32,000 bases of DNA from Nostoc sp. PCC 7120 = FACHB-418 (GTDB lineage Bacteria; Cyanobacteriota; Cyanobacteriia; Cyanobacteriales; Nostocaceae): contig NC_003272.1 of NCBI RefSeq assembly GCF_000009705.1, positions 3,060,001 through 3,092,000 of the forward strand, given 5' to 3'. Under the pieces are notes generated by a model, which saw nothing but the letters and a program-made list of their open reading frames with translations, was not told the origin of the DNA and did no database searches. Both the position numbers and the translations under genes were made by a program. Shown here in pieces: positions 2,390 to 32,000 of the stretch (position 1 is its first letter; each line of letters begins with the position of its first letter).

Positions 2390-2537
2390 TACCAATTCAT
2401 CATTAAGAAAGACCGATTTAGTCTAAATTTCTGGGTTTGGATATGTTAAATCCTTTGGGGGAAGAATATCAGGATTCAGGGCTGAAGATTTAGTAGTTAG
2501 TGGCTAGTTATTCCACTAACCACTAAGCTACCAAGTA

Positions 2538-3536: not shown

Positions 3537-3576
3537 AAAATACTCCATGATTTTAGTTTGTTAAGACTTACTTGCT

Positions 3577-3620
3577 TGGTTGCTAGATCCCCGACTTCTT
3601 GAAGTAGTCGGGAATCTGAC
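3577..3620. repeat. Dispersed palindromic repeat, copy 1 (TTGGTTGCT-AGATCCCCGACTTCTTGAAGTAGTCGGGAATCT)
   Basis: Imperfect hairpin in the pyk-tal spacer. A near-identical copy in the same orientation lies at 6653-6697. Confidence 0.85.
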
Positions 3621-3810
3621 CACCGTTAGTTATTGCTTTGGACTAATAAAAAATCCATAACACCTGCGTAAGCCCATTTTGTTTAGGATTTACCCTATCC
3701 CCTCTTCTTCACACCCTTTTTGATTCCTTACAATTCTGATTTTGGCAACTTTTCTTAACCATTGCCCAATTTGGCTAAGAAGCAAAAGCCTCAGACTTAT
3801 TCTAGGAATA

Positions 3811-5241: not shown

Positions 5242-5248
5242 AGATATT

Positions 5249-5290
5249 GGGGATAGGGGATAGTGAACAGTGAACAGTTACGACTGACTA
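5249..5290. repeat. STRR-like heptamer array (GGGGATA x2, GTGAACA x2, then degenerate heptads)
   Basis: Read directly from the sequence. It lies immediately upstream of the pyk start codon (5241) in the minus-strand sense. Confidence 0.7.
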
Positions 5291-5346
5291 ACTGTTCTAA
5301 CTTTTCGCGTCATGTGGAAAAGTTAACGCCAAACCTAACCCCCCAG

Positions 5347-5410
5347 CCCCCTTCCCTACCAGGGAAGGGGGAGCAATCAAAGCCTCTCTCCTTGCAGGGG
5401 AGAGGTTTGG
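5347..5410. repeat. GC-rich double hairpin of a dispersed-repeat type
   Basis: CCCCCTTCCC-tacca-GGGAAGGGGG (5347-5371) is a perfect 10-bp stem. It is followed by CCTCTCTCC-ttgca-GGGGAGAGG. Both lie downstream of the gap1 stop (5473) on the minus strand. Confidence 0.6.
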
Positions 5411-5472
5411 AGAGGGGTTTTCCAGATACAGTGAAAAGTCAGACTAACTGCTCACCGAATAACTGATAACTG

Positions 5473-6525
<1,053 letters not shown>

Positions 6526-6652
6526 TCAAATTAATCTGGGCGTTTACCCTAGCTTCAACACTGCAAATAGCCAGGTGAATTTTAGTCTGACTGAGCTGAT
6601 CGTGACAGCCCCAGACGCTTTAAGCCCAATTACTTGGCATATTTTAAGGTTT

Positions 6653-6697
6653 TGGTTGCGAGATCCCCGACTTCTTCAAGAAGTCGGGGATCTGAGA
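6653..6697. repeat. Dispersed palindromic repeat, copy 2 (perfect 16-bp arms AGATCCCCGACTTCTT / AAGAAGTCGGGGATCT)
   Basis: The palindrome spans 6661-6693. It begins 14 nt downstream of the xfp stop on the minus strand, so it may act as a terminator or RNA-processing hairpin. Confidence 0.88.
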
Positions 6698-6710
6698 TCC
6701 TCCCTAGTCC

Positions 6711-9092: not shown

Positions 9093-9442
9093 ATCAATCT
9101 CCAATTACACAATTATTTTGCCGGATTCGTTAGTATGCCAGTTTAGTGATCTACGGGATGCGATTCATCTTACTTGTGACGAATTTTTCCAGTGGCTAAC
9201 AGGGACTTTAGGCGTGATTAGCCAATTTTATACATTTGTACCCATCTAAAATAAGGCTAAAGAAATTCTGTTACTGGCTCCCCTGAAAGGTTAACAGACT
9301 TCACATTTTAGCGAGTAATTTTTAACATTAATTTTAGGTAATGTTAAGAAAGTCACAACGTAATTCAAAAAACAAATAACTACTATTTGTTTTTCGGTAT
9401 GACTAAATGGAGCTTTTGAGACAATTGCCAAAAATTGTTAAT

Positions 9443-10923: not shown

Positions 10924-11343
10924 ATGGCTCCTTTACCCGACTATCGTCCTAAACAAATGTCTGTAGGCCCTTTGGAAGCAGAAATTTTAAATATTGTCTG
11001 GGAAGTAGGTTCAGCTACCGTCAAAGATGTCCACGATCGCATTCTGGCTGACCCTAACCGCGAATTAGCTTATACTTCCGTGACTACAGTGTTACGTCGC
11101 CTCACAGACAAAGGTTGGTTAGCTTGTGATAAAAAAGGGCGGGCATTTTATTGGCGGCCATTACTATCAAAACAACAAGCCCAGGTAATTAAAGCCCACG
11201 ATCAATTACATAGCTTTCTAGCAGTGGGTAACCCTGATGTAGTGGCAGCTTTTGCTGATAGCCTTGATGAAGCAGCTAGCGAACAAATAGAAGCGATCGC
11301 CAAACGTATTCAAGCTGCGCGCCAAGCCAGGGAGGAACAATGA
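10924..11343 (+). CDS. BlaI/MecI/CopY family transcriptional repressor (PetR-like)
   Basis: 139 aa. Winged-helix N-terminus (LEAEILNIVWEVGSATVKDVHDRI...YTSVTTVLRRLTDKGWL). The stop overlaps the start of the next gene (ATGA at 11340-11343). Confidence 0.88.
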   Translation: MAPLPDYRPKQMSVGPLEAEILNIVWEVGSATVKDVHDRILADPNRELAYTSVTTVLRRLTDKGWLACDKKGRAFYWRPLLSKQQAQVIKAHDQLHSFLAVGNPDVVAAFADSLDEAASEQIEAIAKRIQAARQAREEQ

Positions 11344-12188
11344 TGCACTTGCTGATGATTTTGACAGCTTTGGTGGTTTCGTGGATTTTCAGAAGTTCTT
11401 GGACTAACCCCCAAGACAATTGGGATGCACGGTGGCAAAGAACATTGTTTTTCTTTCTGTTTCCACCGTTGTTAATTTTGATGACAGCGATCGCTCTCTT
11501 ATTTATGGGGCCGCAAGGCAAAATGGGAGGACTATATACAGGTTGGTTCAGCTATGCACTAGCTTTAACTTTTCTGGGAATTTTCTCTTGTTTGTTTGCC
11601 ACACTAGCTATTCAAGGCTGGCGATCACTACAATCCGCCCGCCACTGCCCTTTAGTTCATCTTGAAGGTAAACAAGTCAGGCTACTCAACACAGCAGCCC
11701 TATTTGCTGGACAAATTGGTTTCTGGCAACCCGAACTTGTAGTTAGTCAAGGATTACTACAAACGCTGTCTCCCAACCATGTAGAAAGCGTTCTCGCCCA
11801 CGAACAAGGACATTTTTATTATCGGGACACCTTTTGGTTTTTCTGGCTGGGTTGGGTGCGTTCTTGCACTGCTTGGCTACCAAATACAGATGCTTTGTGG
11901 CAAGAACTTTTAGTTTTGCGCGAACTTCGTGCCGATAGTTACGCCGCATCCCAAGTTGATCCCCTGTTACTAGCAGAATCACTGTTATTAGTGGTTAGTA
12001 ATGGTTCTGTATTTTCACAATCAGAAATTTGCTGTGCAGCTTTGGGTGATAGTGTAGGCGATCGATTGGAACAAAGAATAGAAGCCTTATTAGCACCACC
12101 AAATCACACCCCAGAAGCCAAATTCCCATCTTGGCATGGTTTTATTTTGGCGCTGCTGCCCTTACTAACTGTCATATTTCACACTTGA
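11340..12188 (+). CDS. BlaR1-like M56 family membrane metalloprotease (PetP-like)
   Basis: 282 aa with several N-terminal TM helices. HExxH site (LAHEQGHFYYRD). Translationally coupled to the BlaI-like gene. Confidence 0.85.
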   Translation: MMHLLMILTALVVSWIFRSSWTNPQDNWDARWQRTLFFFLFPPLLILMTAIALLFMGPQGKMGGLYTGWFSYALALTFLGIFSCLFATLAIQGWRSLQSARHCPLVHLEGKQVRLLNTAALFAGQIGFWQPELVVSQGLLQTLSPNHVESVLAHEQGHFYYRDTFWFFWLGWVRSCTAWLPNTDALWQELLVLRELRADSYAASQVDPLLLAESLLLVVSNGSVFSQSEICCAALGDSVGDRLEQRIEALLAPPNHTPEAKFPSWHGFILALLPLLTVIFHT

Positions 12189-14965: not shown

Positions 14966-15032
14966 AGACGCGATTAATCGCGTCTCTCTAACAATTACCG
15001 AGCGATTAATCGCGTCTCTAACAATTACCGAG
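14966..15032. terminator. 20-bp perfect palindrome plus a ~31-bp direct repeat between convergent genes
   Basis: AGACGCGATTAATCGCGTCT lies at 14966-14985. The unit CGATTAATCGCGTCTCT(CT)AACAATTACCGAG occurs at 14971-15002 and 15003-15032. The second copy overlaps the protease stop codon. Confidence 0.55.
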
Positions 15033-15594
15033 GATGAAACTCTACCTCTGTTTCTAAAATCTTGATGTCGTAGTTGCCAAAAAAATCATGCCCTAGTAGA
15101 CCAAATTCTGCTTTTGGTGCGATCGCCACTTGGATGTTTTTAGCTATGGCTCCACCAGCTGCGATCGATTTCACCTTACTAGTAGAAAATTCCACTTGTG
15201 TACCATCAGCAATTTGAGCCTTCATCACCCCTGTAGGCTGGAGTTGGAGAGCGATCGCTAACTTTAGAGGTATTAAGGTATTGTTCGCACCTGTGTCGAC
15301 AATCATTTCAAAGGTTTTCTTATCATTGAAGGTCACATCAATCACAGGCGTTCTACCCAATCGCCGTTTGATAGGAACCCGAAAAACTCTCTCTGCGTTG
15401 TTTTGAACTGTCTTTGTACCACCACACAGCTTTCTCAAGGGAATGGTTCTACCAGAGGTAGTAATCATAAAACATTCGCCTGGATCTTCAGCATTAACAG
15501 TGTGGGAAAACATCAAACACAACAGTGTTGGTATCACTGCTATTACAGCTAATTTAATATTTTTCTTTTCCTGCCTCCAGTCATTTTTTATCAT
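15025..15594 (-). CDS. Secreted or membrane-anchored retropepsin-like (clan AA) aspartic protease
   Basis: 189 aa. N-terminal hydrophobic signal (IKLAVIAVIPTLLCLMFSHTVNA), catalytic DTGA motif (MIVDTGANNTLIP) and a C-terminal GLLGHDFF segment. Confidence 0.8.
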   Translation of the reverse strand: MIKNDWRQEKKNIKLAVIAVIPTLLCLMFSHTVNAEDPGECFMITTSGRTIPLRKLCGGTKTVQNNAERVFRVPIKRRLGRTPVIDVTFNDKKTFEMIVDTGANNTLIPLKLAIALQLQPTGVMKAQIADGTQVEFSTSKVKSIAAGGAIAKNIQVAIAPKAEFGLLGHDFFGNYDIKILETEVEFHPR

Positions 15595-17738: not shown

Positions 17739-18758
17739 ATGTTGGAAATTCTGACGAAAGAACAATACGATGAAGTTGTAGAAGGCAGCTTGCAGATGTT
17801 ACAGGCTGTAGATCCTAGTCAGTCCTTCGACTTTGTATATAAATGGGAAAGTCACTTTACTCGTACTTCCTATCAGGAAGTGCAGCTACGCCCAGGATTA
17901 TCTCTAGAAATTTTTGATAAAACTCAATATCGCCAAGTAAATATTCAAAATAATCATGACGAAGAATATCCACTAATCGCAAAATTTTATCTAGCTGGAA
18001 ATCATAGTGTAATTTGCCCTGGTATTGCAGGAGTTAGGGAAAAATATCAAGAAACAGGAGGCAATAATTATTTATTTTACTTACCAGATATTGAAGAAAT
18101 CGAGCAATATTTTGCAGGCGATCGCTATTATATAATCAGAATTATTTTTGACATCAATTTCCTCAGAAATTTTGTTACTGGGTTGACACCTGTTCCCAAT
18201 CAATTGCAACCTTTGCTAGAAAGTGATCATCCACCGCGTTTTCATCTGCCTGTGGGTAAAATCACGCCCACCATGCAAACTATACTATCACAGCTTTTAA
18301 ATGCACCCTATCAAGGTATGGTGCAACGCATTTATCTAGAAAGCAAGGTGCTGGAACTGCTGGCTTTGCAATTAGCGCAAATATTGGAAACTGAACAAAA
18401 TCGCCAAACTTTAATTAACCTCAAAGCCTCTGACATTGAAAGAATTTATCACGCCAAAGACATTTTAATTAGTCAATATGATAATCCGCCGACACTGCTA
18501 GATTTAGCCAGAAGAGTAGGTGTCAATGACAATAAATTAAAATTAGGTTTTCGGGAAGTCTTTGGTACAACAGTCTTTGGCTACTTACATAACTACCGCA
18601 TGGAAATGGCGCAAATGCTTTTACAGGAAGGTAAACAAAGTGTAGCTGAGGTAGCATCTCATGTGGGATATTCTAACCCAGGGCATTTTGCAGCCGCATT
18701 CAAGCGGAAATTTGGCATGAGTCCGAAAGTGTGTAGATTAGGAAGAAAAACGGCTTAA
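17739..18758 (+). CDS. AraC family transcriptional regulator (PchR-like, siderophore-responsive type)
   Basis: 339 aa. C-terminal double HTH (LLDLARRVGVNDNKLKLGFREVFG...VAEVASHVGYSNPGHFAAAFKRKFGMSP). Paralogous to ORF 22897-23886. Confidence 0.9.
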   Translation: MLEILTKEQYDEVVEGSLQMLQAVDPSQSFDFVYKWESHFTRTSYQEVQLRPGLSLEIFDKTQYRQVNIQNNHDEEYPLIAKFYLAGNHSVICPGIAGVREKYQETGGNNYLFYLPDIEEIEQYFAGDRYYIIRIIFDINFLRNFVTGLTPVPNQLQPLLESDHPPRFHLPVGKITPTMQTILSQLLNAPYQGMVQRIYLESKVLELLALQLAQILETEQNRQTLINLKASDIERIYHAKDILISQYDNPPTLLDLARRVGVNDNKLKLGFREVFGTTVFGYLHNYRMEMAQMLLQEGKQSVAEVASHVGYSNPGHFAAAFKRKFGMSPKVCRLGRKTA

Positions 18759-18905: not shown

Positions 18906-19817
18906 ATGAAGTTTTTCTTCCCCCAAACAGCCCCACTAATTAACTGGGAACGTCCCTATGAATTTCTCGACAAGGAATTTCAACAAATAGCCAGGGAAGC
19001 GGAACAGGGTAGAAGATACGCCGATAAATTAGTCAAAGTTTGGCAACTTCAAGGAGAGGAAGTTTGGTTATTGATTCATGTAGAAATCCAAGCCAAACCA
19101 GAAGATGACTTTGCCGAAAGGATGTTTTCTTATAACCTGCGAATCTTTGACAAATTTGGTCAACCCGCCATCAGTCTAGCAATTTTGTGTGATGCTGACT
19201 CAACTTGGCGACCAAATCAATACAGTTACAATTATCCTGACTGTAGTTTGGACTTTCGATTTGGTAGTGTCAAGCTACTCGATTATCAAAATCGATGGGC
19301 AGAATTAGAAGCTAGCGATAATCCTTTTGCTACGGTGTTAATGGCACATTTAAAGACACAGCAAACCACTAAGCAACCAGGAGAACGCAAAGCATGGAAA
19401 TTTAGCTTAATTCGGCGACTGTACGCACAAGGACTACAAGAAAGGGATATTCGTAACCTTTATCGTTTTATTGATTGGGTTATGATTTTACCAAAAGCGT
19501 TAGAAGCAGAATTTTGGCAAGAGTTTAAACAATTTGAGCAGGAGCGTACCATGAGTTACATTACCACAGGTGAGCGCATTGGCTACGAGCGTGGCAAAGA
19601 AGAAGGGCAACTAAAACAAGCGCAAGCACTTGTACTACGGTTACTGCAAAAACGGGTGGGAGATTTACCCGCAGAAGTTCGGGAACAGATTCAAAGTCTT
19701 TCTCTAGAACAGTTGGCAACACTGGGTGAGGCTTTATTAGATTTTAGTGCGATCTCTGACTTATTCAACTGGCTAGACGCAAATCACGCTAATGATAATC
19801 ATGGTGTACAAGCTTGA
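18906..19817 (+). CDS. Rpn/YhgA-like PD-(D/E)XK family protein with a DUF4351-like C-terminus; possibly 5'-truncated by an in-frame stop
   Basis: E-x-Q nuclease-type motif (LLIHVEIQAK). The C-terminal module is LRLLQKRVGDLPAEVREQIQSLSLEQLATLGEALLDF. An upstream in-frame ATG at 18831 is separated from this ORF only by a TAA at 18876-18878. Confidence 0.75.
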   Translation: MKFFFPQTAPLINWERPYEFLDKEFQQIAREAEQGRRYADKLVKVWQLQGEEVWLLIHVEIQAKPEDDFAERMFSYNLRIFDKFGQPAISLAILCDADSTWRPNQYSYNYPDCSLDFRFGSVKLLDYQNRWAELEASDNPFATVLMAHLKTQQTTKQPGERKAWKFSLIRRLYAQGLQERDIRNLYRFIDWVMILPKALEAEFWQEFKQFEQERTMSYITTGERIGYERGKEEGQLKQAQALVLRLLQKRVGDLPAEVREQIQSLSLEQLATLGEALLDFSAISDLFNWLDANHANDNHGVQA

Positions 19818-19910
19818 AGATAAAGGATTTAGTAGGCGATCGCTAACACTAAGCTTCCCTCTAACGCATATTTGCTGCTAAAATCCTCCAAAGGTTTAGG
19901 CAGACTTTTC

Positions 19911-20747
19911 ATGCGCCGAGATTCGATATTTTATAAGCTGTTTCAACAATCACCAAGTTTATTATTTCAACTATTGACAAACCCGCCAGAAAATGCAGAT
20001 GAATATAAATTTGATTCTGTAGCAGTCAAAGAACCTAAATTTGAAATTGATGGTGTATTTTTGCCGCCCGAAAGCGCAAATCCGGGTACAGTTTATTTCT
20101 GTGAGGTGCAGTTCCAGGAAGATAAAAGGCTTTACGAACGATTATTTGCGGAATCTCACTTATATTTTTATCGTAACCGGAATAGATTTAATGACCTACA
20201 TATAGTCATTATCTACCCATCCCGCAGCATCGAACAAGATGAAGTTCGTCCTTTTCGGAGTCTGTTGAATGGAGACCAGGTAAATCGCATATATTTAGAT
20301 GAGTTGGGTGATATTCGTTCTTTACCTGTGTGGGTTGCATTGATGGTTTTAACTACCCTGGAAGAAAATCGTGCAACCGAAGAAGCTAGGTATTTGCTAG
20401 CTAGGAGTCAGCAGGAAGTACCTCAAGGTGAAAATCGTGCCATCATAGATTTATTAACAACGATTATGGTGTACAAGTTTGAAGGCAAGAGTCAACGTGA
20501 GGTAGAAGAGATGTTAGGAATTACACTGCAAGAAACGCGGGTTTATAGAGAAATTAGGGAAGTAGAAGCGCGATCGCTGATTTTGCGTCAATTAAATCGT
20601 CGTGTAGGGGAGTTACCGCAGGAAGTGCGATCGCGTATCGAATCCCTTCCCTTAGAACAATTGGAAAATCTCGGTGAAGCGTTGCTTGATTTTACCAGCA
20701 TGGCTGATTTAGATGCTTGGTTGTCGGGGTTGGATGCTAATTCTTAA
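19911..20747 (+). CDS. Rpn-like/DUF2887-type PD-(D/E)XK protein with a DUF4351-like C-terminus
   Basis: ATG at 19911 (MRRDSIFYKLFQQSP). Motifs IDGVF...VYFCEVQFQ. The C-terminus LRQLNRRVGELPQEVRSRIESLPLEQLENLGEALLDF is paralogous to the preceding gene. Confidence 0.8.
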   Translation: MRRDSIFYKLFQQSPSLLFQLLTNPPENADEYKFDSVAVKEPKFEIDGVFLPPESANPGTVYFCEVQFQEDKRLYERLFAESHLYFYRNRNRFNDLHIVIIYPSRSIEQDEVRPFRSLLNGDQVNRIYLDELGDIRSLPVWVALMVLTTLEENRATEEARYLLARSQQEVPQGENRAIIDLLTTIMVYKFEGKSQREVEEMLGITLQETRVYREIREVEARSLILRQLNRRVGELPQEVRSRIESLPLEQLENLGEALLDFTSMADLDAWLSGLDANS

Positions 20748-20913: not shown

Positions 20914-20948
20914 TGTTGGGTTGCACTACGTTTCACCCAACCTACAAG
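20914..20948. repeat. Dispersed cyanobacterial hairpin repeat (GTAGGTTGGGTGAAACGTAGTGCAACCCAACA type)
   Basis: Stem GTTGGGT / ACCCAAC at 20915-20921 and 20935-20941. It overlaps the last codons and stop of the chimeric ORF. A related GTAGGTTGGGG...CCCCACC hairpin lies at about 1786-1822. Confidence 0.6.
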
Positions 20949-22737
20949 ATATGCGATCGCACTGGTTTTTTTGAGAATTGATAAGGTACTTTTCGAGATC
21001 ATCCAGGATCGCATTAATCGCGAAAATATCGGGTTCATGCCAATGTTCACCGACAAAATAGACCTGATTGCGTTGAACAGCATTTAGCTGTTGCCATAGG
21101 GGTCTACGCTGAAGCTTATCTAAGGTTGTCTTGGCTCGATTTCCCCAAAGCGTAAAAAAGAGAACATCGCCATCAATATCAGATAACATCTCTTCCGAAA
21201 TATTTTCTAGGTAAAACAAATCTCCCATTTGCGATCGCGGACGTTGCAGACCAATTTCTTCCAGAATCGTCCCTGAATAATGCTTTTGCCCATACCCCCA
21301 GAATATACCTTCTCCAGTGGCTACGACAGAAACCGTAAGGGTATGGCGACGATCACCCAGTGCTTGCTTGAGTTGTTCAATCCGTTGCGAAGAGCGATCA
21401 ATAAGCTGCTGACTCACTGTTTCTTTGCCTAAAATCTGAGCAAGTTCTTGTAGTTCATACTTCCAACCAATGGGAGGAAAAGGAGTTTGGATATTATTAG
21501 AATGTTCGTAGCCCGCAATCAAGCGATAAAGTACAGTCTTATCTGCGGTGAGAGGGCCTGATAGATCGATGCTAGGCTGATAGTATCCGTAATTTCCTGC
21601 CTCAAACGCAATTTGGTAATAGGGTTCACCCAGAGGTTGCTTCGTAATGGTGTTAATTACTCCACCAGGTTCCACACCTCCGAATAGAACTGAAGCGGGT
21701 CCTTTGAGAACTTCCACTTGCTCGATCGTTCCGATGGGAACAATGTCAATATAATCCGCATCAGGAACCCCGTTGCGTAAGTTTTCGGTGCCTCCCACTG
21801 CAAATCCTTGAGTGAATCCTCGAATAGTCTTAATTCCTGAAGGCGCACCATAAATGGTTCCACCGTCAACAACACCACTGACTGTTTGCACTGCCTCATT
21901 CACGCTTCTGACCTTGCGATCGCGCAATACTTCCTGGGGTACAACCTGAATCGATTGGGGAATATCCCGCAATGGCGTATCCGTCCGCGTCGCTGTACTT
22001 GCATTCGGTACGCCATAACTATCTGCTTCCCCCGTCACCACCAACTCAATTGGGTCATCCTGCTGCGCTGCGGGTTGTTCTTCCGGTTTCTCTTCTGCTG
22101 GTTTTTCTTCGGTTGGTGTTTCCGGGGTTTGTGCAGATATGGCTTTCGATGCAACTGCAAAAATCAACCCCGTATCATCATCAAATAACTCAACCGCAGG
22201 TAAGGCTTTCTCTCCAACCACCGTTACCCGCACGGTATTCACATCAATATTTGTAGCTGTAATTTCGGTAATTCCCTCGATGGGCTTTTCTGACTTAAAC
22301 GTGAAAGCATCCCCATTGGGTAAACGTAATTGCCCACCAGCCACATCAACGATAAAATTATTCCCCGTACTGCGGTTAGCAACTTGCAGTTTATCTCCTG
22401 CGGTTGTCTCTAAAATTACCTCCACACCTTTATCTGTGGGATTGGCTTTGACTCCCGTAATTGCGACACTCCCCTGTTGCTCATCTTGGGAAGGGGGGTT
22501 GGTGTTAATGGGTGCGGGTTGCTGTACTAATAATTTTGCGCTAGTTGCAGGAAGTTCTATTTCGCTGAGTTGGGGAATTGGCAACCCTTTATCTTCCACT
22601 TTTGTTGTAGGGGGAGAAGTGGGAAGGCGAGATTTTCCCTGCGCCCATCCTGGCTGGATTACCAAAGCACTCAAACATCCTGATAAAATTACTAATAGTC
22701 TGAAATTACAATTAGTAGAAAATTGCCAAAATTTCAT
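20926..22737 (-). pseudogene. Chimeric ORF: TonB-dependent receptor N-terminus fused in frame to the C-lobe of a siderophore-binding protein
   Basis: The first ~420 aa are a signal peptide, an AMIN-like domain, a Pro/Glu linker, a plug (DTPLRDIPQSIQVVPQEVL...) and the first barrel strands. The last ~180 aa align to the C-terminal half of the binding protein at 28246-29232 (LGDRRHTLTVSVV.., EEIGLQRP, RPLWQQLNAVQRNQVYFV, ILDDLEKYL). The junction is at about 21465-21505. Confidence 0.65.
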
Positions 22738-22896: not shown

Positions 22897-23886
22897 TCAA
22901 GATACGGACTTTTTCCCCATTAAACATTCTTTGGGACGGATACCATACTGCCGCTTAAACACGCTGGCGAATAAACTTAAATGAGAATAACCCACAATAT
23001 TCGCCACTTCTGCGACAGTAAGCTTTCCTTCCCGCAAAAGTTTTTCGGCTTGTTCCATCCGCATAACAGTTAGGTAACTAAATACAGTCGTACCAAACAG
23101 TTCCCGGAAACCACGTCGAAGGGTGCGATCGCTGACTCCAACTATTTGTGCTAACTCTAATGATGATGGTGGATTGTCCATCCGCGATCGCAAAACTTCC
23201 CTAGCCTGATGAATTCGCGCAATCGTATCTGGTCTCAGTGATGGTGTTTGCTTTTTCTCTTCATTCTCCAAAAGGGGAGCTAACTGCAAGGCGATTAACT
23301 CAAATATTTTCCCCTGCAAATATATTTGTTTTGTCACCCCATGAAAGGGACAATTGATAATTTGTTGCGCTACTCCATATATTGTTGGGGTACTTTGGGG
23401 ATAAAATACTGGATGTAAATCATCATCCTTAAATAATTTCCGCAGTTGTGGTATCAAGTCTCCATCTTTTCCTGGAAACAAATTTGCTAGGAGTTGACGG
23501 GATACCCCAATGGTCAACCCCACAAGGCGTTGATTTTTTTGGATTTGAGCAACAGTTTTCTGTTGAATCCCACCACCACAAACCAAAGTATAACTTTCTC
23601 CACATTGACCGCGTTCAGTCACAATTTTTCCTGAAAGCAAAACATCAAAATGTAGATCATGTTGACCTTCAGGAGATGTTATAAATACATCATCGTTATA
23701 TTCCAAATCAGTAAAGTCCAGCCAGATATCGGAATGCAAATCCATTTCTTGACGATAACCTTCACCCAATTTCCGTGGTACTTTCCATAAAAATTCAGTC
23801 AACTTCGACCCAGAATCAAATTCGTTTGTGTGTATAGGCTCACCAAGAAGTTCATTCCATTCGTCATGGGTTAGAGTGACTGTCAT
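22897..23886 (-). CDS. AraC family transcriptional regulator (PchR-like), paralog of 17739-18758
   Basis: I chose the ATG at 23886 (MTVTLTHDEW); the ORF track starts at a TTG at 23913. The C-terminal HTH pair is LELAQIVGVSDRTLRRGFRELFG...VAEVANIVGYSHLSLFASVFKRQYGIRP. Confidence 0.9.
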   Translation of the reverse strand: MTVTLTHDEWNELLGEPIHTNEFDSGSKLTEFLWKVPRKLGEGYRQEMDLHSDIWLDFTDLEYNDDVFITSPEGQHDLHFDVLLSGKIVTERGQCGESYTLVCGGGIQQKTVAQIQKNQRLVGLTIGVSRQLLANLFPGKDGDLIPQLRKLFKDDDLHPVFYPQSTPTIYGVAQQIINCPFHGVTKQIYLQGKIFELIALQLAPLLENEEKKQTPSLRPDTIARIHQAREVLRSRMDNPPSSLELAQIVGVSDRTLRRGFRELFGTTVFSYLTVMRMEQAEKLLREGKLTVAEVANIVGYSHLSLFASVFKRQYGIRPKECLMGKKSVS

Positions 23887-23911
23887 AGCTGGTTTTAAGT
23901 TGACATTATGC

Positions 23912-23928
23912 AAATAATGATATTATTT
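23912..23928. promoter_or_regulatory. Fur-box-like AT palindrome AAATAAT-gat-ATTATTT
   Basis: Perfect 7-3-7 inverted repeat about 26 nt upstream of the AraC ATG (minus strand). It resembles the GATAAT-hexamer architecture of Fur operators. Confidence 0.35.
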
Positions 23929-24318: not shown

Positions 24319-24338
24319 ATTTGCAAATTAATTGCAAT
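24319..24338. promoter_or_regulatory. Perfect 10-bp palindrome ATTTGCAAAT followed by ATTGCAAT, upstream of the receptor gene
   Basis: It lies about 35-50 nt upstream of the ATG at 24371. Related ATTGCAAAT sites occur at 17622-17630 and 22814-22822, in the other two iron-gene promoters. Confidence 0.4.
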
Positions 24339-24370
24339 ATAAAGTTCGGATAGTGAGAAGAGTGAGCGGT

Positions 24371-26995
24371 ATGAAGTCTTGGCAACAGAAGGAAATCATT
24401 TCAGCAAGTCTTGTGTTTTCGTGCATATCATTGCTAGTGCAACCAGCCGTTGCTGAAACTCGATCGCATCATGATATTAGCAGCACCCAGCTGATGGCGC
24501 AACAATCAGCAGTCAAAGTTACAGGTGTGAAAGTCAACTCTACAGATAAAGGGATTGAAGTTCTCTTACAAACTCCCCAAGCAGAAGCATTGCAACCTGT
24601 AACTAAAACTGAAGCCAATAGTTATATTGCAGATATTCCCAATACAGTGTTAGAACTCCCAGAGGGTAAAGATTTCAGCGTGAATAATCCTGTGGCTGGG
24701 ATTGTGTCTGTAAATGTGACTCAAGCTGATGCTAATACTATCCGAGTGACGGTAACGGGAGAGTCACAAGTCCCAACCGTGGAATTATTTGATAGTGATG
24801 AAAGTCTGATTTTTAGCTTCACACCTGTTGTTTCAACGACACAAACACCAACACAACCAGAACAGCCAACTAGTGAAGAAACACCAGATGCAACAACATC
24901 TGAAAGCGACTCATCAATTGAACTGGTCGTGACAGCAACGCGTACAGAAGAAGATATCCAAAATGTACCGCGTTCTGTAACTGTGATTACTCGTGAGCAG
25001 ATTGAGGATCAAGCAAGGTTAAGCACTAACTTAGCTGACATTCTGGCAAAAACTGTTCCTGGCTTTGGTTCACCAATTAGTCGGACTGATACATTCGGGC
25101 AAAATTTACGGGGTCGCAACATCTCAGTTTTAATTGACGGAGTTCCCCAAAATGGTAATTTACAATCATTTTCTGCACAATTGACCACTATTGATCCCAG
25201 TGCAATTGAACGGATTGAAGTTGTGCGTGGCCCGAATGCGATCTATGGTGGTCAAGCAACTGGTGGTGTAGTCAATATTATTACTAAGAGGCCAAGCGGT
25301 CAAAAACTAACTTCCACAACAAATATTGGTTTGGATACCTCCTTAACTCGTTCCGAAGATAGTTTTGGTTATAACCTTTCCCATCAAATTGCGGGGACAG
25401 AAGGCAAATTTGATTATACTGTGGGTTTTTCGCTGGTGACAACTGCGGGTTTTTATGATGCAGAAGGCGATCGCATTGCTAATTTTGCAGGTGATGATGA
25501 TAGCACCAAAATCAACGCCTTGGCTAAAATAGGAGTTGAATTATCGCCAGAACAACGTCTGCAATTCACTTTCAATCACTTTAATCAGCAACAAAATAGT
25601 GATTTTATTTCCGACCCGGCCGTTGATGATATTCCTGGTATTCAAAAATCTCGCGCCTTGAAGCTACCGGAAGGAACAACTGTGATTGGTGCTGATCAAG
25701 GGATTTCTATCACAAATACTTTACTGAGCTTAAATTACAATAACGACAATATTTTCGGTAGCAAACTTCAGGCTCAAGCTTACTATCGTAACTATAATTT
25801 TGCTGGGGGAATTCCTGATGATAACCGGGGTGGTAGCTTAAGAGCGATTACCGATTCAGAAGGGGGTACAGAACAATTAGGCGGAAGATTGCAAGTTGAG
25901 ACACCCTTCAACTCTCAAAAAACAGTGAGTTTACTTTGGGGTGTGGACTATCAAAATGAGCGTAGTTCTCAAAAATTTAATATTTTCGATCCTGGGGAAT
26001 TTGACGCATCAGGGGGTCGAATCTTTCGCAAGATTGAAGAGCGAGTTTTTGTTCCCGAATATGACTTTAGAGAACTGGGTGTATTTGGTCAATTGCAATG
26101 GGAAGTTAGTGATAACCTGCGTTTAAGTGGTGGCTTGCGTTATGTGAATATAGGTGTGAGTTTAGACGACTACATCACCGCCGATTTTCCCCGTCGGAAT
26201 ATGCAAGGGGGCGATCGCAGTCTTGATTCTACAGTATTTAATGCAGGTATTGTCTATAAATTTACCCCAGAAGTTAGTGTATTTGCCAGCTTTTCTCAAG
26301 GCTTCTCAGTTCCCGATTTAGGTCGTGTCTTCCGACGACCCCCAGCAGGTGTAGTCAATATTTTAAACTCTCTGCAACTGACAGAACCACAGAAAGTAGA
26401 CAACTATGAAATCGGCATTCGCGGTCAATGGGATAATGTCCAAGCATCCTTGTCTGGTTTCTACAACTATTCTGATCTAGGTTCGGCTTTTAACTTTAAC
26501 CGTAGCACTGATTTTCTAGAGACTGTTCGCGCTCCTCAAAAAGTTTACGGTATAGAGGCTGCGGTTGATGTCCAACCTACTGAGGGTTGGAGAGTGGGGG
26601 GTACGGCGACTTGGATAGAAGGTGAAAATGATGCAAATAATGATGGTCAATATCTAGCACTCAACAGTATTACAGTCCCACCATTGAAGTTGACCGCTTA
26701 TGTAGAAAACCAAACCCTCAAAGGTTGGCGGAACAGATTACAATTACTTTACTCAGGCGATCGTGATCGGGCTTTTGAAGATGGTGTAGAAGATGGTAAA
26801 ATCAGCAGCTTCGTCACCGTAGACTACATCAGCAGCATCAAAATAGGTCAAGGGGAACTACAAATAGGCATTCAAAACCTCTTCAATAACCAATATTTCC
26901 CAGTTTACTCACAATACTTTGCACCTTTCTTTGATAGTGCTAACTACGCAGGTCAAGGTAGAACCTTAAGCGTTGGGTATCGGATTATTTGGTAA
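24371..26995 (+). CDS. TonB-dependent siderophore receptor with an N-terminal AMIN-like domain
   Basis: ATG at 24371 gives a signal peptide (MKSWQQKEIISASLVFSCISLLVQPAVA). It is followed by an AMIN-like domain, a Thr/Pro/Glu linker, a plug (IELVVTATRTEEDIQNVPRSVTVITREQIE), a long beta-barrel and a C-terminal ...GYRIIW. Confidence 0.92.
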   Translation: MKSWQQKEIISASLVFSCISLLVQPAVAETRSHHDISSTQLMAQQSAVKVTGVKVNSTDKGIEVLLQTPQAEALQPVTKTEANSYIADIPNTVLELPEGKDFSVNNPVAGIVSVNVTQADANTIRVTVTGESQVPTVELFDSDESLIFSFTPVVSTTQTPTQPEQPTSEETPDATTSESDSSIELVVTATRTEEDIQNVPRSVTVITREQIEDQARLSTNLADILAKTVPGFGSPISRTDTFGQNLRGRNISVLIDGVPQNGNLQSFSAQLTTIDPSAIERIEVVRGPNAIYGGQATGGVVNIITKRPSGQKLTSTTNIGLDTSLTRSEDSFGYNLSHQIAGTEGKFDYTVGFSLVTTAGFYDAEGDRIANFAGDDDSTKINALAKIGVELSPEQRLQFTFNHFNQQQNSDFISDPAVDDIPGIQKSRALKLPEGTTVIGADQGISITNTLLSLNYNNDNIFGSKLQAQAYYRNYNFAGGIPDDNRGGSLRAITDSEGGTEQLGGRLQVETPFNSQKTVSLLWGVDYQNERSSQKFNIFDPGEFDASGGRIFRKIEERVFVPEYDFRELGVFGQLQWEVSDNLRLSGGLRYVNIGVSLDDYITADFPRRNMQGGDRSLDSTVFNAGIVYKFTPEVSVFASFSQGFSVPDLGRVFRRPPAGVVNILNSLQLTEPQKVDNYEIGIRGQWDNVQASLSGFYNYSDLGSAFNFNRSTDFLETVRAPQKVYGIEAAVDVQPTEGWRVGGTATWIEGENDANNDGQYLALNSITVPPLKLTAYVENQTLKGWRNRLQLLYSGDRDRAFEDGVEDGKISSFVTVDYISSIKIGQGELQIGIQNLFNNQYFPVYSQYFAPFFDSANYAGQGRTLSVGYRIIW

Positions 26996-27073
26996 ATTTT
27001 AGGAAGAAAAACAGAGATAAAGAGGTCGCTGTATCAGTTTCTTAGCAGCAATAAAAAGATAAATAATTTAGTT

Positions 27074-27110
27074 ACGTGGGTGTTCGAGTCAGAACACCCA
27101 TGTAATTTTC
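27074..27110 (+). terminator. Rho-independent terminator after the receptor gene
   Basis: ACGTGGGTGTTC-gagtca-GAACACCCATGT forms a 12-bp stem with one G-U pair. AATTTTCT follows it. Confidence 0.6.
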
Positions 27111-27201
27111 TCAAATATGTCACCTGTAACGCCATTGTTGAATATCCAGAGTCAGCTAAGATACCTTAAACTTGTACCCAAACAAACATAAATCATATTT
27201 A

Positions 27202-27225: not shown

Positions 27226-27258
27226 CTGAAATGACTAACTCTGATTTTGTGGTTTATT

Positions 27259-28230
27259 ATGAACAAAATTTTCTGTGCTGAGGAATCTTGTCAAGCAAAA
27301 GAAGACCCCATTGGTACTGCCATAAATCGCCGATACTATATCTTAATTGAAGTTCCACCACCTTGGACATCTCAACCCCTAGATTCCAAAAATATTCCCA
27401 GTAAATTACAAGATTTACAATCAGATATTGATGAAGCGGCTTGTTATATAAGGTTTGTGTTTATTTACAATGCCAATTATTACCAAAGTGGGCAAACTCG
27501 GTTAATTATCTATTACCAGACAGAAGAAATATATTCAGGGTATAGCAAGAAAGAATATATCCTATCAGATATTAATGATGCAGTACCAATCATCCAAAAG
27601 TGCATCAAAAATGAAACTCTAGAATCTGAAGACACCAATATTCAAACTAGAGATTTTTTAGTATGTACTCATGGTAGTCATGATAAATGCTGTGCTAAAT
27701 ATGGCAATCCTTTTTATCATCAAGCCTTAGCAAAAGTAGAAGATTTATCATTATCTCATGTGCGAGTTTGGCAAAGCAGTCATTTTGGTGGACATCGTTT
27801 TGCACCAACTATGATTGAGCTTCCAGAAGGCAGATATTACGCTAGGTTAGACCAAAAATCTTTTACTTCTATCTTGACACGAACGGGCGATATCCAATGT
27901 TTAAAAAAAGTCTATCGTGGTTGGGGTATCTTACCTTGGCAAGTGCAAATATTAGAAAGAGAGTTGATGCTCAAATATAATTGGGATTGGTTTAATTACA
28001 AAGTGCAAGGTCATGTAATTGAGCAAAACGAGGATGAAACTTTTAGTCAAGTAGAAATAAAGTTTACCACACCTGATGGCATAGTTGGCTGTTATAGATG
28101 TAATGTGATTGAAGATGAAAATAAAAGTGTAGTTTTTAGGGCAGAATGCGGCAATACTGAATTAGTAAAGATTTCTCAATTTAGCATTACAGAACTTGTT
28201 GATATAGCCACATCATTAATCGCAGTTTAA
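27259..28230 (+). CDS. Sucrase/ferredoxin-like (thioredoxin-like 2Fe-2S, Apd1/Aim32-type) protein
   Basis: ATG at 27259 (MNKIFCAEE). Motifs CTHGSHDKCC (Cys-x8-Cys) and SSHFGGHRFAP (HxGGH), the ligand pattern described for bis-histidinyl 2Fe-2S proteins of this family. Confidence 0.78.
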   Translation: MNKIFCAEESCQAKEDPIGTAINRRYYILIEVPPPWTSQPLDSKNIPSKLQDLQSDIDEAACYIRFVFIYNANYYQSGQTRLIIYYQTEEIYSGYSKKEYILSDINDAVPIIQKCIKNETLESEDTNIQTRDFLVCTHGSHDKCCAKYGNPFYHQALAKVEDLSLSHVRVWQSSHFGGHRFAPTMIELPEGRYYARLDQKSFTSILTRTGDIQCLKKVYRGWGILPWQVQILERELMLKYNWDWFNYKVQGHVIEQNEDETFSQVEIKFTTPDGIVGCYRCNVIEDENKSVVFRAECGNTELVKISQFSITELVDIATSLIAV

Positions 28231-28245
28231 TTAATCATCAGGAAA

Positions 28246-29232
28246 ATGTCAATTAAAAATAATTTATTTATCAGGGTATTTACCTTCCTGCACCATATAC
28301 TTAATTATCATCAAATTAAGTTAATTTTATTCAGCATCATCACAGCTTTAATAGTTATCGGCTGTGAAATGAGTACACCAAACAATGTCACTATAAATTC
28401 TGTGAATGCAACTTCAGAAATGCGCGTAGTTAAACATACTATGGGCGAAACAAAAATACCTTTGCGTCCACAGAGGGTAGTTGTACTAGGTGGCTTAGAT
28501 AATATTTTAGCTTTAGGGGTAAAACCAATAGCAGCTACAACATTCAGTGATGATAACTTTGCTGATTACTTACAAGATGTAACATCAGGAATTGAAAAAA
28601 TTGGTATTAATGGTCAACCAAATCTAGAAAAGATTTTATATCTCAAACCAGACTTAATTTTAGGTTTTTCTTGGGATGCTGAATTATATGGACAACTATC
28701 GCAAATTGCCCCAACAGTATTGGCAGATCAAGATAGCGATTGGAAAGATTGGTTAAAGAAATATGCGGAAGCAGTTGGAGAAACAGCAAAAGCTGAAAAA
28801 TTGTTGCAAGAATATGATCAAAGAATGGAAAGCCTGCGTCAACAAATGGGAGATACCCTTTCCCAAACCAAAGTATCTTTAGTCAACTTTTGGGCTAATT
28901 TTACTCGTCTTTATATGAATAATTCCTTTGGTGGATCAATCCTCAAAGAAATCGGTTTACCTCGTCCTAAATATCAAGATAAAGATAAAAATCACGAAAA
29001 TATCTCTTTAGAATTAATTCCTCAGATCAATGGTGATGTTATTTTCTTAATTCTTGGAGGACACAATGAATCAAGGTTGAAACAATTTACCAATCATCCT
29101 TTGTGGTCGCAGTTACAAGCTGTACAAAAAAATCAGGTTTATCCAGTTACAGGTGATGTTTGGATTTCTGCATGGGGAATCATTGGAGCTAATCTTGTTT
29201 TGGATGACTTATTCAAATATTTGCTTGAGTAA
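28246..29232 (+). CDS. fecB: Iron-siderophore ABC transporter substrate-binding lipoprotein (FecB/FhuD family)
   Basis: 328 aa with lipobox IVIGC. Cluster-A binding-protein pattern (RVVVLGGLDNILALGVKPI, LKPDLILG, HPLWSQLQAVQKNQVYPV). The symbol is family-level. Confidence 0.86.
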   Translation: MSIKNNLFIRVFTFLHHILNYHQIKLILFSIITALIVIGCEMSTPNNVTINSVNATSEMRVVKHTMGETKIPLRPQRVVVLGGLDNILALGVKPIAATTFSDDNFADYLQDVTSGIEKIGINGQPNLEKILYLKPDLILGFSWDAELYGQLSQIAPTVLADQDSDWKDWLKKYAEAVGETAKAEKLLQEYDQRMESLRQQMGDTLSQTKVSLVNFWANFTRLYMNNSFGGSILKEIGLPRPKYQDKDKNHENISLELIPQINGDVIFLILGGHNESRLKQFTNHPLWSQLQAVQKNQVYPVTGDVWISAWGIIGANLVLDDLFKYLLE

Positions 29233-29356: not shown

Positions 29357-30154
29357 TTACAATTGCTTTTCTCCCTTGCGTCCTATTGGTACACACATTG
29401 GTGTTCCTACAACAGGGTCAGAAACAATACGACACTGTAAGCCAAAAACCTCTTGTACCATTTCTTCAGTCATTACATCTTTTGGTTCTCCAGCCGTGAA
29501 AATTCTGCCTTGTTTCACGACAACCAGATAATCTGCATAACGACAAGCCTGGTTTAAATCATGCAGCACCATGACAATAGTTCTCTCTTGATGCTGATTC
29601 AATTCGTATAACAAATCCAACACTTCTATCTGATGTGCTAAATCTAAAAAAGTGGTGGGTTCATCTAACAATAAAATATCTGTATCTTGTGCCAGTGCCA
29701 TTGCAATCCAAGCACGTTGGCGTTGTCCACCAGATAAGGTGTCTAAGGCCCTATCTGCCAAGGATAATAAATTGGTAATCTCTAGCGCCTGTTGGACAAT
29801 TATTTCATCTTTTTCTGACCACTGCTGCAACCAGTTTTGATAAGGATAACGTCCTTGTCCTACTAAGTCTTTGACTGTTAATCCTTCTGGCGCAACTGGA
29901 CCTTGAGGCAAGATTCCTAATTGCTTTGCTACTTCCTTTGTTGCCAGACTAAAAATAGATTGTCCATCTAAATGAACTGTCCCACCATAGGGTTTAAGTA
30001 GTCTGGCTAAACCTCGTAGTAAAGTTGATTTACCGCAACCATTTGCACCAACCAAAGCACTAATTTTACCAGTAGGAATTGCCAAATTCAAGTCACGGAT
30101 AATTGGGACACCATCATAAGCTAAAGACAGACTTTGAGTTGATAATCCTTTCAT
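29357..30154 (-). CDS. fecE: Iron-siderophore ABC transporter ATP-binding protein
   Basis: Walker [10 protein letters not shown], signature LSGGQRQR, Walker [10 protein letters not shown] prefer the start at 30154 ([15 protein letters not shown]). An alternative ATG at 30226 would translate the heptamer array. Confidence 0.9.
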
Positions 30155-30167
30155 ATTGGCTATTTTT

Positions 30168-30205
30168 TGAGTGTTGACTGTTGAGTGTTGACTGTTGAGT
30201 GTTAA
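30168..30205. repeat. STRR3-like heptamer array (CAACAGT/CAACACT alternating on the minus strand)
   Basis: On the plus strand it reads TGAGTGTTGACTGT x2 followed by TGAGTGTT. CAACAGT is the STRR3 heptamer described in heterocystous cyanobacteria. Confidence 0.75.
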
Positions 30206-30263
30206 ACGGGCGGGTTTAACCGACATATGTGTTTTCTGTGTGAATATCTCACAGAACCCATCC

Positions 30264-31304
30264 CTACTTCTTGCGATTACGAATTAACAAATAGAGGAAA
30301 TAAGGCGCACCGACGGCAGCTGTCACTACGCCACAAGGAATTTCGATAGGTGCAAAGAGGGTTCGTCCCAAGAAGTCTGCCACAACAACAAGCATCCCTC
30401 CCAACAACGCAGAGGTAGGGAGCAAGCCTTGATGATTTGTACCTACTAACTGTCTGCCTAAATGGGGTGCTATTAATCCTACAAAACCAATCATTCCGGC
30501 TGTGGCGACTCCTGCACCTGCCAATGCTACACCTACTAGCACTAGCAAACCACGCTGCCATTCCACACGAGTACCTAAACCTTTGGCAACATCATCTCCC
30601 AAATTTAAGGTGTTCAAATGTCTGGCTAATGTCAACGCCATCGGGACAAAAACGATTAACCAAGGTAAGAAGGAAAAGACTTGTTCCCAGGTGCGTCCGT
30701 AGACACTACCCGCTAACCATACCAAAGCGTCACTGACGCTATAGATATCGCCAAAGGTAATCATCAAGCTGGTGAAAGCACCTGCGATCGCAGATAATCC
30801 CACACCCATTAAAATAAACAAAACGGGGGAACTACCATTGTTCCAAGCTAAGGAGTAAATTAAACCAGCCATTAATAAAGCACCTGCAAAGGCTGATAAA
30901 GGCAAAGTGTAAATGGGCGCTGAGGGAAATAGGACAATTACTGTAACTGCTGCTAGACTTGCCCCGGCATTAATGCCAATAATACCGGGATCAGCTAGTG
31001 GGTTGCGTGTGATGCCTTGAAAGATAGTCCCGGCAACGGCTAGTGCCACTCCTACCATGCAAGCGACAAGGGTACGGGGTAGACGCAGGTTGTAAATCAC
31101 AAAAGCATGATCTGGGTTGCCTGTATCTATACCTAATACTGTTTTGATGATATCTAAGGGCGCAATGGGATATTCACCCCGCCCTAAGTTCATTACCATC
31201 GCTACCACAATAGCCACTACCAAACATAGCAATATTGGTGGTACACGTCGGTCAATCCGCAAAGACATGGTTTCGGAACGGATGACGAGCCAATCAACCT
31301 TCAT
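30264..31304 (-). CDS. fecD: Iron-siderophore ABC transporter permease (FecCD family)
   Basis: 346 aa and polytopic. Motif [18 protein letters not shown]. The start overlaps the stop of the upstream permease gene (ATGA at 31301-31304). Confidence 0.9.
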
Positions 31305-32000
31305 TTCTTCACCTTTGATTTAGCCAAGTAAACAAAAAAGGGTGCGCCAACCAATGCTGTCATTACTCCCACAGGTAATTCCTGGGGTTTGAGTAATACA
31401 CGGGCCGCCACATCTGCAACTAAAAGTAAAGTTGCACCGACGACTGCGGAGTATGGCAAAATCCAACGATAATCAGCTTTGATGAAAAATCTCACCATGT
31501 GAGGCACGACTAAGCCAATAAAGCCAATTGGCCCAGCCAGAGATACGGAACTTCCCGCCAGTAAAACCACGCTGATGGCAGTTGTAATTTTCACCCAAGC
31601 AGTCTGTTGACCCAAGCCTTTAGCCATATCTTCACCCAGACTCATGGTTGTAATTTGTCTACCCAGAGCAAAGGCTACTACTAAGCCAATCATGACGAAA
31701 GGTAAGGCTGACAATAAGATGTTGAAATCTCGTCCAGCCAAAGAACCAGCTAACCAAAATCTAATTTCTTCTAAGGTGCGTTGACTAACGATGAGAATAG
31801 CAGTGGTGAGGGAAGAAATCAGTGCTGTCAACGCCGCACCTGCTACGGTGAGATTTAATGGTGTAGCTCCTCCCTTCCCTAAAGACCCAAGGAAGTAGAC
31901 TAACATCGCTGTGACTCCTGCACCCAAAAAGGCCACAGTGGTTAACAAACCCAAGGAGGAGCTGCCAAACACGAAAATTGTTGTAACTACAGCTAATGCG
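31301..32000 (-). CDS. fecC: Iron-siderophore ABC transporter permease (FecCD family), 5' end beyond the window
   Basis: Polytopic FecCD-type sequence ([12 protein letters not shown]..., [17 protein letters not shown]). The frame stays open to the window edge. Confidence 0.88.

Follow-up and report, generated by a model that had tools for sequence, protein, structure and literature searches.

Which protein takes the iron out of an imported ferric siderophore in cyanobacteria? Only two families of cytoplasmic ferric-siderophore reductases (FSR) are recognised, SIP and the FhuF-type FSR (PMC11965169, PMC12919436); no reductase is known for cyanobacterial schizokinen use, where a 2019 review points to those of other bacteria (PMC6562677). 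The question is raised by a gene at positions 27259-28230 (+) of a 32-kb stretch of DNA (the window, meaning the whole stretch analysed), which encodes a Suc_Fer-like protein (SucFer below) and lies between genes for a TonB-dependent siderophore receptor and a FecB/FhuD-type siderophore-binding lipoprotein. An earlier reading of the bare sequence (the original prediction) took the product for a cytoplasmic redox protein that might act in iron release, and proposed checking whether such genes co-occur with uptake genes across cyanobacteria. From the evidence assembled here it is very probably a cytoplasmic accessory of siderophore import and, with distinctly less assurance, perhaps a reductase.

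The co-occurrence was followed through 80 cyanobacterial loci from species-representative genomes, with neighbouring genes scored by profiles built from the window's own proteins. Clade A consists of the window and 13 genome loci, its members including Nodularia, Goleter, Rivularia, Calothrix, Dulcicalothrix, Gloeocapsa, and Myxacorys; at 13 of the 13, as in the window, SucFer stands together with genes for a receptor and a binding protein. Clade B comprises the other 67 loci, mostly from Nostocales and at about 46-50% identity, and an uptake gene was found within 10 kb in none of these. One metagenome-assembled genome (MAG) has both types (L009, L016). The partner receptors and binding proteins score between 107 and 1469 bits against those of the window, i.e., they are of different subfamilies, and from this wide spread it follows that the linkage to SucFer has outlived partner exchange. 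The trees are rough neighbour-joining ones, relied on only for the separation of contexts and not for branching order. Reciprocal monophyly of the two clades, as in the first tree, was given up when a larger tree nested clade B inside an iron-linked cyanobacterial group.

Independent look-ups of clade A gave three iron-linked loci out of three. Chroococcidiopsis has the order AraC-receptor-SucFer-binding protein, followed by a major facilitator superfamily (MFS) gene; in Coleofasciculus, nonribosomal peptide synthetase (NRPS) and polyketide synthase genes precede SucFer-binding protein-MFS_3; and in a Thermosynechococcaceae MAG two FecCD genes and an ATPase gene come before receptor-SucFer-two binding proteins-MFS_3-FeoA. 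The clade-B protein of Cylindrospermum has no iron genes nearby. Locus L170, L. boryana (binding protein-SucFer), and plasmid pAQ7 of PCC 7002 (exbB-exbD-SucFer beside a receptor and a binding protein) agree with the clade-A rule, while no uptake genes accompany clade-B copies on any of 32 metagenome contigs. Predictions were also written down for four loci before their neighbourhoods were looked up, and all four were correct: two A-like copies lie in receptor-SucFer-binding-protein arrays, and two B-like ones (Okeania, Trichodesmium) do not. Taken together, siderophore-uptake neighbours occur at 22 of 22 A-type and 0 of 102 B-type loci (Fisher p = 7e-25, not corrected for phylogeny). The check is strongly positive in the cyanobacteria, with three further phyla added below.

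A Pfam census of 110 open reading frames (ORFs) around 15 A-type loci gave Peripla_BP_2 (17), Plug (15), TonB_dep_Rec_b-barrel (14), AMIN (14), MFS_1 (11, nine of them also MFS_3), FecCD (10), ABC_tran (9), HTH_18 of the AraC type (7), Penicil_amidase (3), MotA_ExbB (2), and TonB_C (2); neither FhuF nor SIP recurs among them. The three penicillin-amidase or acylase genes are in three of the 15 neighbourhoods, and another stands beside the Gloeothece cassette described below (L177:11773-12987). These enzymes may process acylated siderophores.

The family is large (3273 clusters at 50% identity, E <= 1e-3), with the motifs described below widely kept, and the link to siderophore import recurs in Cyanobacteriota, Chloroflexota, Deinococcota, and Bacteroidota. 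A Chloroflexi genome has the order ATPase-SucFer-three binding proteins, and an unassigned contig ATPase-SucFer-binding protein. In three Deinococcus species SucFer comes first in the operon and overlaps an iron-type ATP-binding cassette (ABC) permease gene by 4 nucleotides (nt), followed by binding-protein, permease, and ATPase genes; 13 Deinococcus plasmid records are among the matches. On a plasmid of Chondrinema (Bacteroidota) SucFer is likewise linked to import genes, and in the cyanobacterium Gloeothece PCC 7424 an NRPS gene is followed by receptor-binding protein-SucFer. Among 25 distant metagenomic loci flanked by 4 kb or more of sequence, about seven are iron-linked. In rough neighbour-joining trees the iron-linked cases fall into several separate clades with different gene orders.

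Other neighbours of the family were noted along the way. The clade-B copies of Okeania and Trichodesmium lie directly after a JmjC_2/Cupin_8 gene (L183:3871-6044, L184:4356-7037), and the iron-linked Gloeothece copy is followed by a cupin-like gene (L177:5968-7845); the adjacency may mean that these proteins work together with Fe(II)-dependent oxygenases. In a protein of 596 amino acids (aa; P0211) a Suc_Fer-like domain is joined to a UbiE-type methyltransferase, a different functional context, and on a metagenomic contig (L091:6199-8062) genes for the two lie side by side. This was the only domain fusion found; no "Rosetta stone" fusion to a transporter or reductase turned up. Ferritin or Dps genes are near the copies of Rubrobacter, L091, and L. 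boryana.

The SucFer gene of the window encodes 323 aa. Its open frame reaches back to a TTG at 27247 (27247-28230), but the start was set at the ATG at 27259 because all aligned homologues begin MN(K/x)(I/F)F. The closest database protein, from Nostoc sp. UHCC 0870, is 97% identical. PF06999 (Suc_Fer-like; InterPro IPR009737) is matched over profile positions 2-191 of 191 (E = 1.1e-30; 107.6 bits against a gathering cut-off of 34.9) and is the sole Pfam match, so that no FAD- or NAD-binding, DNA-binding, or recognisable signalling domain was found; no NCBIfam model matches. CTHGSHDKCC occupies residues 136-145 (nt 27664-27693, +) and HFGGH residues 175-179 (nt 27781-27795, +), giving C136-x8-C145-x29-H175-FGG-H179. 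This agrees with the Apd1/Aim32 signature C-X8-C-X24-75-H-X-G-G-H (PMC11138216), in which a pair of Cys coordinates the ferric iron of the cluster and a pair of His the reducible one, the His ligation making proton-coupled electron transfer possible (PMC11138216, PMC8482512). By analogy the window protein would bind a [2Fe-2S] cluster, with Cys136 and Cys145 as predicted ligands of the ferric iron and His175 and His179 of the reducible one. All four residues are invariant in 120 homologues with identities down to about 27%, as are H138, D142, W36, R131, W171, R180, E233, W242, and W244. Given the Pfam match over the whole profile, the motif is no chance one.

Two further cysteines are well kept. 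Cys6 (27274-27276), followed by a GEDPIG-type motif (EDPIGT, 27298-27315), is present in at least 90% of the family across phyla and is not among the four published cluster ligands. Cys144 (27688-27690), next to the ligand Cys145, is kept in at least 90% of the 120-sequence alignment; the position is Ala in CctD (discussed below) and in the Gloeothece and three Deinococcus copies examined, all of them iron-linked (L172, L174, L178, L179), and Cys144 is therefore not required for the uptake-linked role.

A hydropathy scan found no hydrophobic N-terminal stretch or signal peptide, the maximum over 15 residues being 0.54, vs 2.89 for the FecB-like protein, and SucFer is predicted to be soluble and cytoplasmic. 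An AlphaFold2 model built with 120 homologues (mean predicted local distance difference test, pLDDT, 92.4; predicted template modelling score, pTM, 0.91) has three domains: an alpha/beta N-domain (about residues 1-125), whose N-terminus is confidently modelled within the fold, a central domain (about 130-222), and a C-domain of one helix and six strands (about 227-315). With Foldseek the central domain (about 87 residues) matched thioredoxin-like [2Fe-2S] ferredoxins at probability 1.00 and target template modelling scores of 0.57-0.64, including Aquifex Fd4 (1F37 / 1M2A), FeSI of A. vinelandii (5ABR), and HydB N-domains. The model thus places a thioredoxin-like ferredoxin fold around the Apd1/Aim32 motif. 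For the N- and C-domains Foldseek gave only weak beta-barrel or NTF2-like matches (probability <0.8), and searches of PDB sequences, run both with SucFer alone and with a profile of 120 sequences, gave no meaningful match and no solved structure for any family member. The family assignment, the cytoplasmic location, and the motifs given in the original prediction are all borne out by these results.

The genes around SucFer in the window are as follows.

22897-23913 (-): AraC-family regulator (Pfam HTH_18, HTH_AraC), divergent from the receptor gene
24332-26995 (+): TonB-dependent siderophore receptor with N-terminal AMIN domain, IutA2 / RhtA-like (Pfam AMIN, Plug, TonB_dep_Rec_b-barrel)
27259-28230 (+): SucFer gene, between the receptor gene and the FecB-like gene
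28246-29232 (+): FecB/FhuD-type siderophore-binding lipoprotein, fecB1-like (Peripla_BP_2, E = 1.2e-29; lipobox VIGC at Cys40)
29357-30226 (-): ABC importer ATPase, fecE1-like (Pfam ABC_tran), convergent
30264-31304 (-): FecCD-family permease, fecD1-like (Pfam FecCD, E = 1.5e-97)
31301-32000 (-): second FecCD-family permease, fecC1-like, matching FecCD positions 95-309 only, the frame being open and cut by the end of the window

The receptor likely starts at the ATG at 24371. It scores 236.7 bits against an NCBIfam TonB-siderophore subfamily (cut-off 223.5), the best named match being RhtA. The SucFer stop codon at 28230 and the ATG of the FecB-like gene at 28246 are separated by 15 nt, and no FhuF, FhuF_C, SIP, or FAD_binding_9 domain was found by Pfam in any substantial ORF of the window. 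The original prediction had described the same placement, spacing, and lack of known reductase genes. The gene order is also that of the PCC 7120 region in the literature, where alr2581, alr2582 ("unknown / hypothetical protein"), and alr2583 (fecB1) are followed by the convergent all2584-86 (fecE1D1C1) (PMC2771747, PMC3610870, PMC4390870, PMC10792254), alr2581 being IutA2, a schizokinen receptor (PMC2771747, PMC10792254). The SucFer gene is almost certainly the ortholog of alr2582, as judged from this published synteny, which takes in the flanking carbon-metabolism genes as well, and not from sequence comparison.

Between the receptor and SucFer genes are three further features.

27070-27107 (+): terminator-like 16-bp hairpin followed by UUUUCUC, 75 nt past the receptor stop codon
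27158-27258 (+): conserved promoter/operator region of the SucFer-FecB unit, near-invariant in the window, L001, L002, and L007
27207-27221 (+): Fur-family-box-like site TGATAATAATTGTAA, agreeing with 12 of 14 positions of a 7-1-7 consensus, 52 nt before the SucFer ATG

The hairpin was overlooked by a simple terminator scan and spotted by eye; folding confirmed it (-24.6 kcal/mol, z = -7.26, a stability that none of 200 shuffles reached). Despite differing upstream genes, the stretch of about 100 nt leading up to the SucFer ATG is almost unchanged in the four genomes. In PCC 7120, alr2582 heads its own transcription unit, which has a tail-to-tail overlap with fecC1-fecE1 (PMC10287535). The hairpin, the separate conserved upstream region, and this published unit together indicate that SucFer is not simply co-transcribed with the receptor gene. 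What the original prediction said of the gene's position inside a siderophore-uptake operon holds.

TGATAATAATTGTAA is the sole match to the 7-1-7 consensus with two or fewer mismatches on either strand of the 32 kb. It is found at the same offset of -52 in the three closest loci (L001, L002, L007) and at -74 in Coleofasciculus (L083); of the 47 upstream regions from clade B, none has it. With up to three mismatches allowed, the 19-mer Fur box of E. coli gave no match, and a 7-1-7 match is compatible with either FurA or Zur/FurB. SucFer and the FecB-like gene thus probably form a unit of their own under a Fur-family protein. On the other side of the overlap, all2586 is a predicted FurA target (PMC4005646). 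The alr2582 unit itself is induced at nitrogen step-down, in a late HetR-dependent class (PMC10287535), and is SigC-dependent (PMC4390870). A second element, AAGATACCTTAAA at 27158-27170 (+), lies some 100 nt ahead of the SucFer ATG and does not vary among the window, L001, L002, and L007, different as their upstream genes are; it might be related to the late HetR-dependent induction.

The role that would best join these observations is to reduce the imported Fe(III)-siderophore by one electron, coupled to proton transfer, so that Fe(II) is set free. It is put forward tentatively, at a little less than even confidence. It is favoured because SucFer is constantly coupled to the importer and not to any other enzyme, because known reductases are absent from these clusters, because FhuF offers a precedent as a [2Fe-2S] protein with a pH-dependent potential (PMC8068687), and because His-ligated clusters have intrinsic proton coupling (PMC11138216); the conserved Fur-box-like site was counted in its favour as well. 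In such a scheme the IutA2-like receptor, the FecB-like lipoprotein, and the FecCDE importer would bring in a ferric schizokinen-type siderophore. One electron, with a proton from a His ligand, would then pass from the reduced cluster to the Fe(III)-chelate, upon which Fe(II) would dissociate and the siderophore ligand be released. Ferredoxin, flavodoxin, FNR, or another general donor would re-reduce the cluster. Substrate and donor are both presumed here. The broader proposal, that operon-embedded Suc_Fer-like proteins are a third family of cytoplasmic ferric-siderophore reductases, with a Cys2His2 [2Fe-2S] cluster and proton-coupled chemistry, present in at least four phyla and supplying the missing iron-release step in cyanobacteria, is held only slightly less likely.

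Coupling of reductase and importer has a precedent in mycobacterial IrtA, in which a SIP-like reductase is fused to the importer. The SIP, ViuB, and YqjH reductases are, like SucFer, cytoplasmic and encoded beside siderophore ABC importers, but they are flavoproteins using NAD(P)H (PMC11965169), and the window protein has neither FAD_binding_9 nor SIP domains. FhuF and FchR, of the FSR family, are the closest functional analogues of the proposed role, being cytoplasmic [2Fe-2S] proteins encoded with siderophore uptake; the pH-dependence of the FhuF potential has been argued to be functionally important, and FhuF is Fur-regulated (PMC8068687). The families are nevertheless unrelated: FSR proteins have four Cys ligands and a fold that is not the thioredoxin-like ferredoxin one, and the window protein has neither their C-C-x10-C-x2-C motif nor a Pfam FhuF match. 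FchR, a "novel-type" schizokinen reductase, was considered as a possible Suc_Fer-like member and set aside, since it has been placed with the FhuF-type FSRs (PMC11965169).

Yeast Apd1 and Aim32 share the Pfam family and the ligand motif with the window protein, as judged from the published motif rather than an alignment with the yeast sequences. They differ in being eukaryotic and without a link to siderophore import, their proposed roles being redox quality control and tolerance of phenolic compounds, and the bacterial proteins possess a further conserved domain, about 100 aa long, at the C-terminus. The all-Cys thioredoxin-like ferredoxins (Cys-X10-12-Cys-X29-34-Cys-X3-Cys; PMC11138216), among them Aquifex Fd4, FeSI, and HydB/NuoE N-domains, have the fold of the central domain and the same x3 spacing between the last two ligands. 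They are proteins or domains of about 100 aa with four Cys, whereas the window protein has His175 and His179, a first spacer of 8, and two flanking domains.

The nearest known counterpart by context is CctD (BAU16020) of the cyanochelin transport cassette in Leptolyngbya sp. NIES-3755, a member of the same InterPro family whose homologues recur in cyanobacterial siderophore transport loci and for which its authors raise iron reduction as a possibility (preprint 10.64898/2026.07.30.741596). CctD is also a PF06999 / IPR009737 protein with C-x8-C ... HFGGH, encoded inside a cassette with receptor, binding-protein, MFS, and permease genes, which was placed on plasmid AP017310; the window protein falls in the same class, as an IPR009737 protein encoded within a receptor, binding-protein, and ABC-importer cassette. 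The two are not orthologs. They are 29% identical and CctD belongs to a separate deep clade, so that it represents a paralogous lineage in the same type of context. The cctD gene follows the MFS gene and overlaps the permease gene, while the window gene precedes the binding-protein gene, and the CctD cassette serves a beta-hydroxyaspartate siderophore rather than accompanying a schizokinen-type receptor.

Several readings other than iron reduction were weighed. In one, SucFer would be an electron carrier or redox partner for an enzyme acting on the siderophore ligand or on some phenolic or hydroxy-acid relative of it, and would not itself reduce the chelated iron. The enzyme might be a cupin/JmjC oxygenase or an acylase, or belong to a recycling step. 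Thioredoxin-like ferredoxins are generally electron carriers (PMC11138216), and yeast Aim32 has been postulated to act in phenolic allelochemical degradation (cited in PMC8482512). The cupin/JmjC genes directly beside the Okeania, Trichodesmium, and Gloeothece members fit such a partnership, as do the acylase genes in three of 15 neighbourhoods. This is judged unlikely, however, given that the constant neighbours across phyla are import components only (binding protein, permease, ATPase, receptor), with no second enzyme conserved, and that the Deinococcus operon consists of SucFer and the importer only.

About equally improbable is a sensor of cytoplasmic iron or redox state, whose labile His-ligated cluster would act as a gate on the ABC importer, or pass a signal to the AraC regulator, with no turnover of substrate. 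His-ligated [2Fe-2S] sensors are known, IscR and NEET proteins being counted among Cys3His clusters (PMC12499515), and thioredoxin-like ferredoxins have been suggested to act in regulation (PMC11138216). The SucFer gene often has an AraC gene for a neighbour, and it overlaps a permease gene in Deinococcus and in the case of CctD. Yet many linked loci lack an AraC gene, those of Deinococcus, Chloroflexi, and PCC 7002 among them; neither a DNA-binding nor a recognisable signalling domain is present in the protein; and its three-domain build of about 320 aa, with many invariant residues besides the ligands, looks like that of an enzyme.

There is a slimmer chance that SucFer is an iron acceptor or chaperone, its Cys/His site or cluster taking iron freed from the siderophore on to storage or to Fe-S assembly. 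The ferritin and Dps genes near the Rubrobacter, L091, and L. boryana copies would suit this, but such adjacency is sporadic, and the conserved motif of the yeast prototypes holds a stable [2Fe-2S] cluster (PMC11138216). That SucFer is a general housekeeping redox protein, brought to this position by gene-order history and with no specific role in iron uptake, is very hard to credit: clade B and many non-cyanobacterial members do stand alone and CctD was dispensable in a heterologous host (preprint 10.64898/2026.07.30.741596), but the linkage has been kept or re-made in four phyla with differing gene orders and partner subfamilies, often with overlapping or near-abutting frames, it is missing from all 102 paralogue loci of comparable genomes, and a Fur-box-like site is conserved upstream.

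Reduction of the imported chelate also has several points against it. The family is functionally mixed, with clade B, an Agrobacterium copy in a catabolic context and lacking the His motif, the methyltransferase fusions, and JmjC-cupin neighbours all outside an uptake context. No confident Foldseek match marks the N- or C-domain as a siderophore-binding module. The reductase role is a candidate one, plausible as a reading of gene context and cluster chemistry. The potentials of His-ligated [2Fe-2S] clusters are usually above those of all-Cys ones, a disadvantage in reducing hydroxamate complexes, save where Fe(II) is trapped or protonation helps. Published expression data for alr2582 concern nitrogen step-down (HetR, SigC; PMC10287535, PMC4390870), and none were found on its response to iron. 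Finally, CctD was dispensable for cyanochelin-B-dependent growth of Synechocystis, for which CctA and CctB were enough (preprint 10.64898/2026.07.30.741596). This neither proves nor excludes a reductase role, complementation by the host or another route of release being possible. When the PCC 7002 protein was used as query, no Synechocystis homologue was among the best 120 of 588 matches.

The association with uptake loci and the idea of iron reduction are already public in the 2026 preprint (10.64898/2026.07.30.741596). New here are the alr2582 instance with IutA2 and FecB1, the split between clades A and B with a successful prospective test, the finding that the link reaches into Chloroflexota, Deinococcota, and Bacteroidota, the conserved Fur-box-like element, and a confident three-domain model. 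The window locus offers a concrete candidate for iron release in the schizokinen IutA2 / FecB1 system of the genetically tractable Nostoc/Anabaena lineage, with clade B vs clade A as a built-in control for specificity, and the recurrence across phyla suggests that what is learned here would hold more widely, Deinococcus and Chloroflexi included. Should the reductase role be true, it would be the first physiological function for the bacterial branch of the Apd1/Aim32 family; if it is wrong, the tight coupling to the importer still marks an extra component of a well-studied pathway.

Other features of the window deserve brief mention. A 603-aa ORF at 20926-22737 (-) joins receptor AMIN and Plug domains, without a beta-barrel, to the C-terminal half of Peripla_BP_2 (residues 424-563 matching profile positions 94-232), and has the look of a receptor gene that a deletion joined in frame to the next fecB-like gene. 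A second AraC-family regulator at 17739-18758 (+), very similar in architecture to that at 22897-23913, lies upstream of it. DUF2887 / DUF4351 proteins at 18906-19817 and 19872-20747 (+) adjoin the iron-uptake cluster, as one does in Chroococcidiopsis (L081:12029-12871). Genes for acetate kinase, transaldolase, pyruvate kinase, GAPDH, and phosphoketolase cluster at 33-9104 (-), with PCC 7120 counterparts all2563-all2567, of which all2563, all2564, all2566, and all2567 share with alr2582 a list of genes with SigC-dependent induction at nitrogen step-down (PMC4390870). Unrelated to SucFer are a pair encoding a BlaI-like repressor and a BlaR1 / M56-like peptidase at 10924-12188 (+), and a retroviral-type aspartyl protease ORF at 15025-15594 (-).

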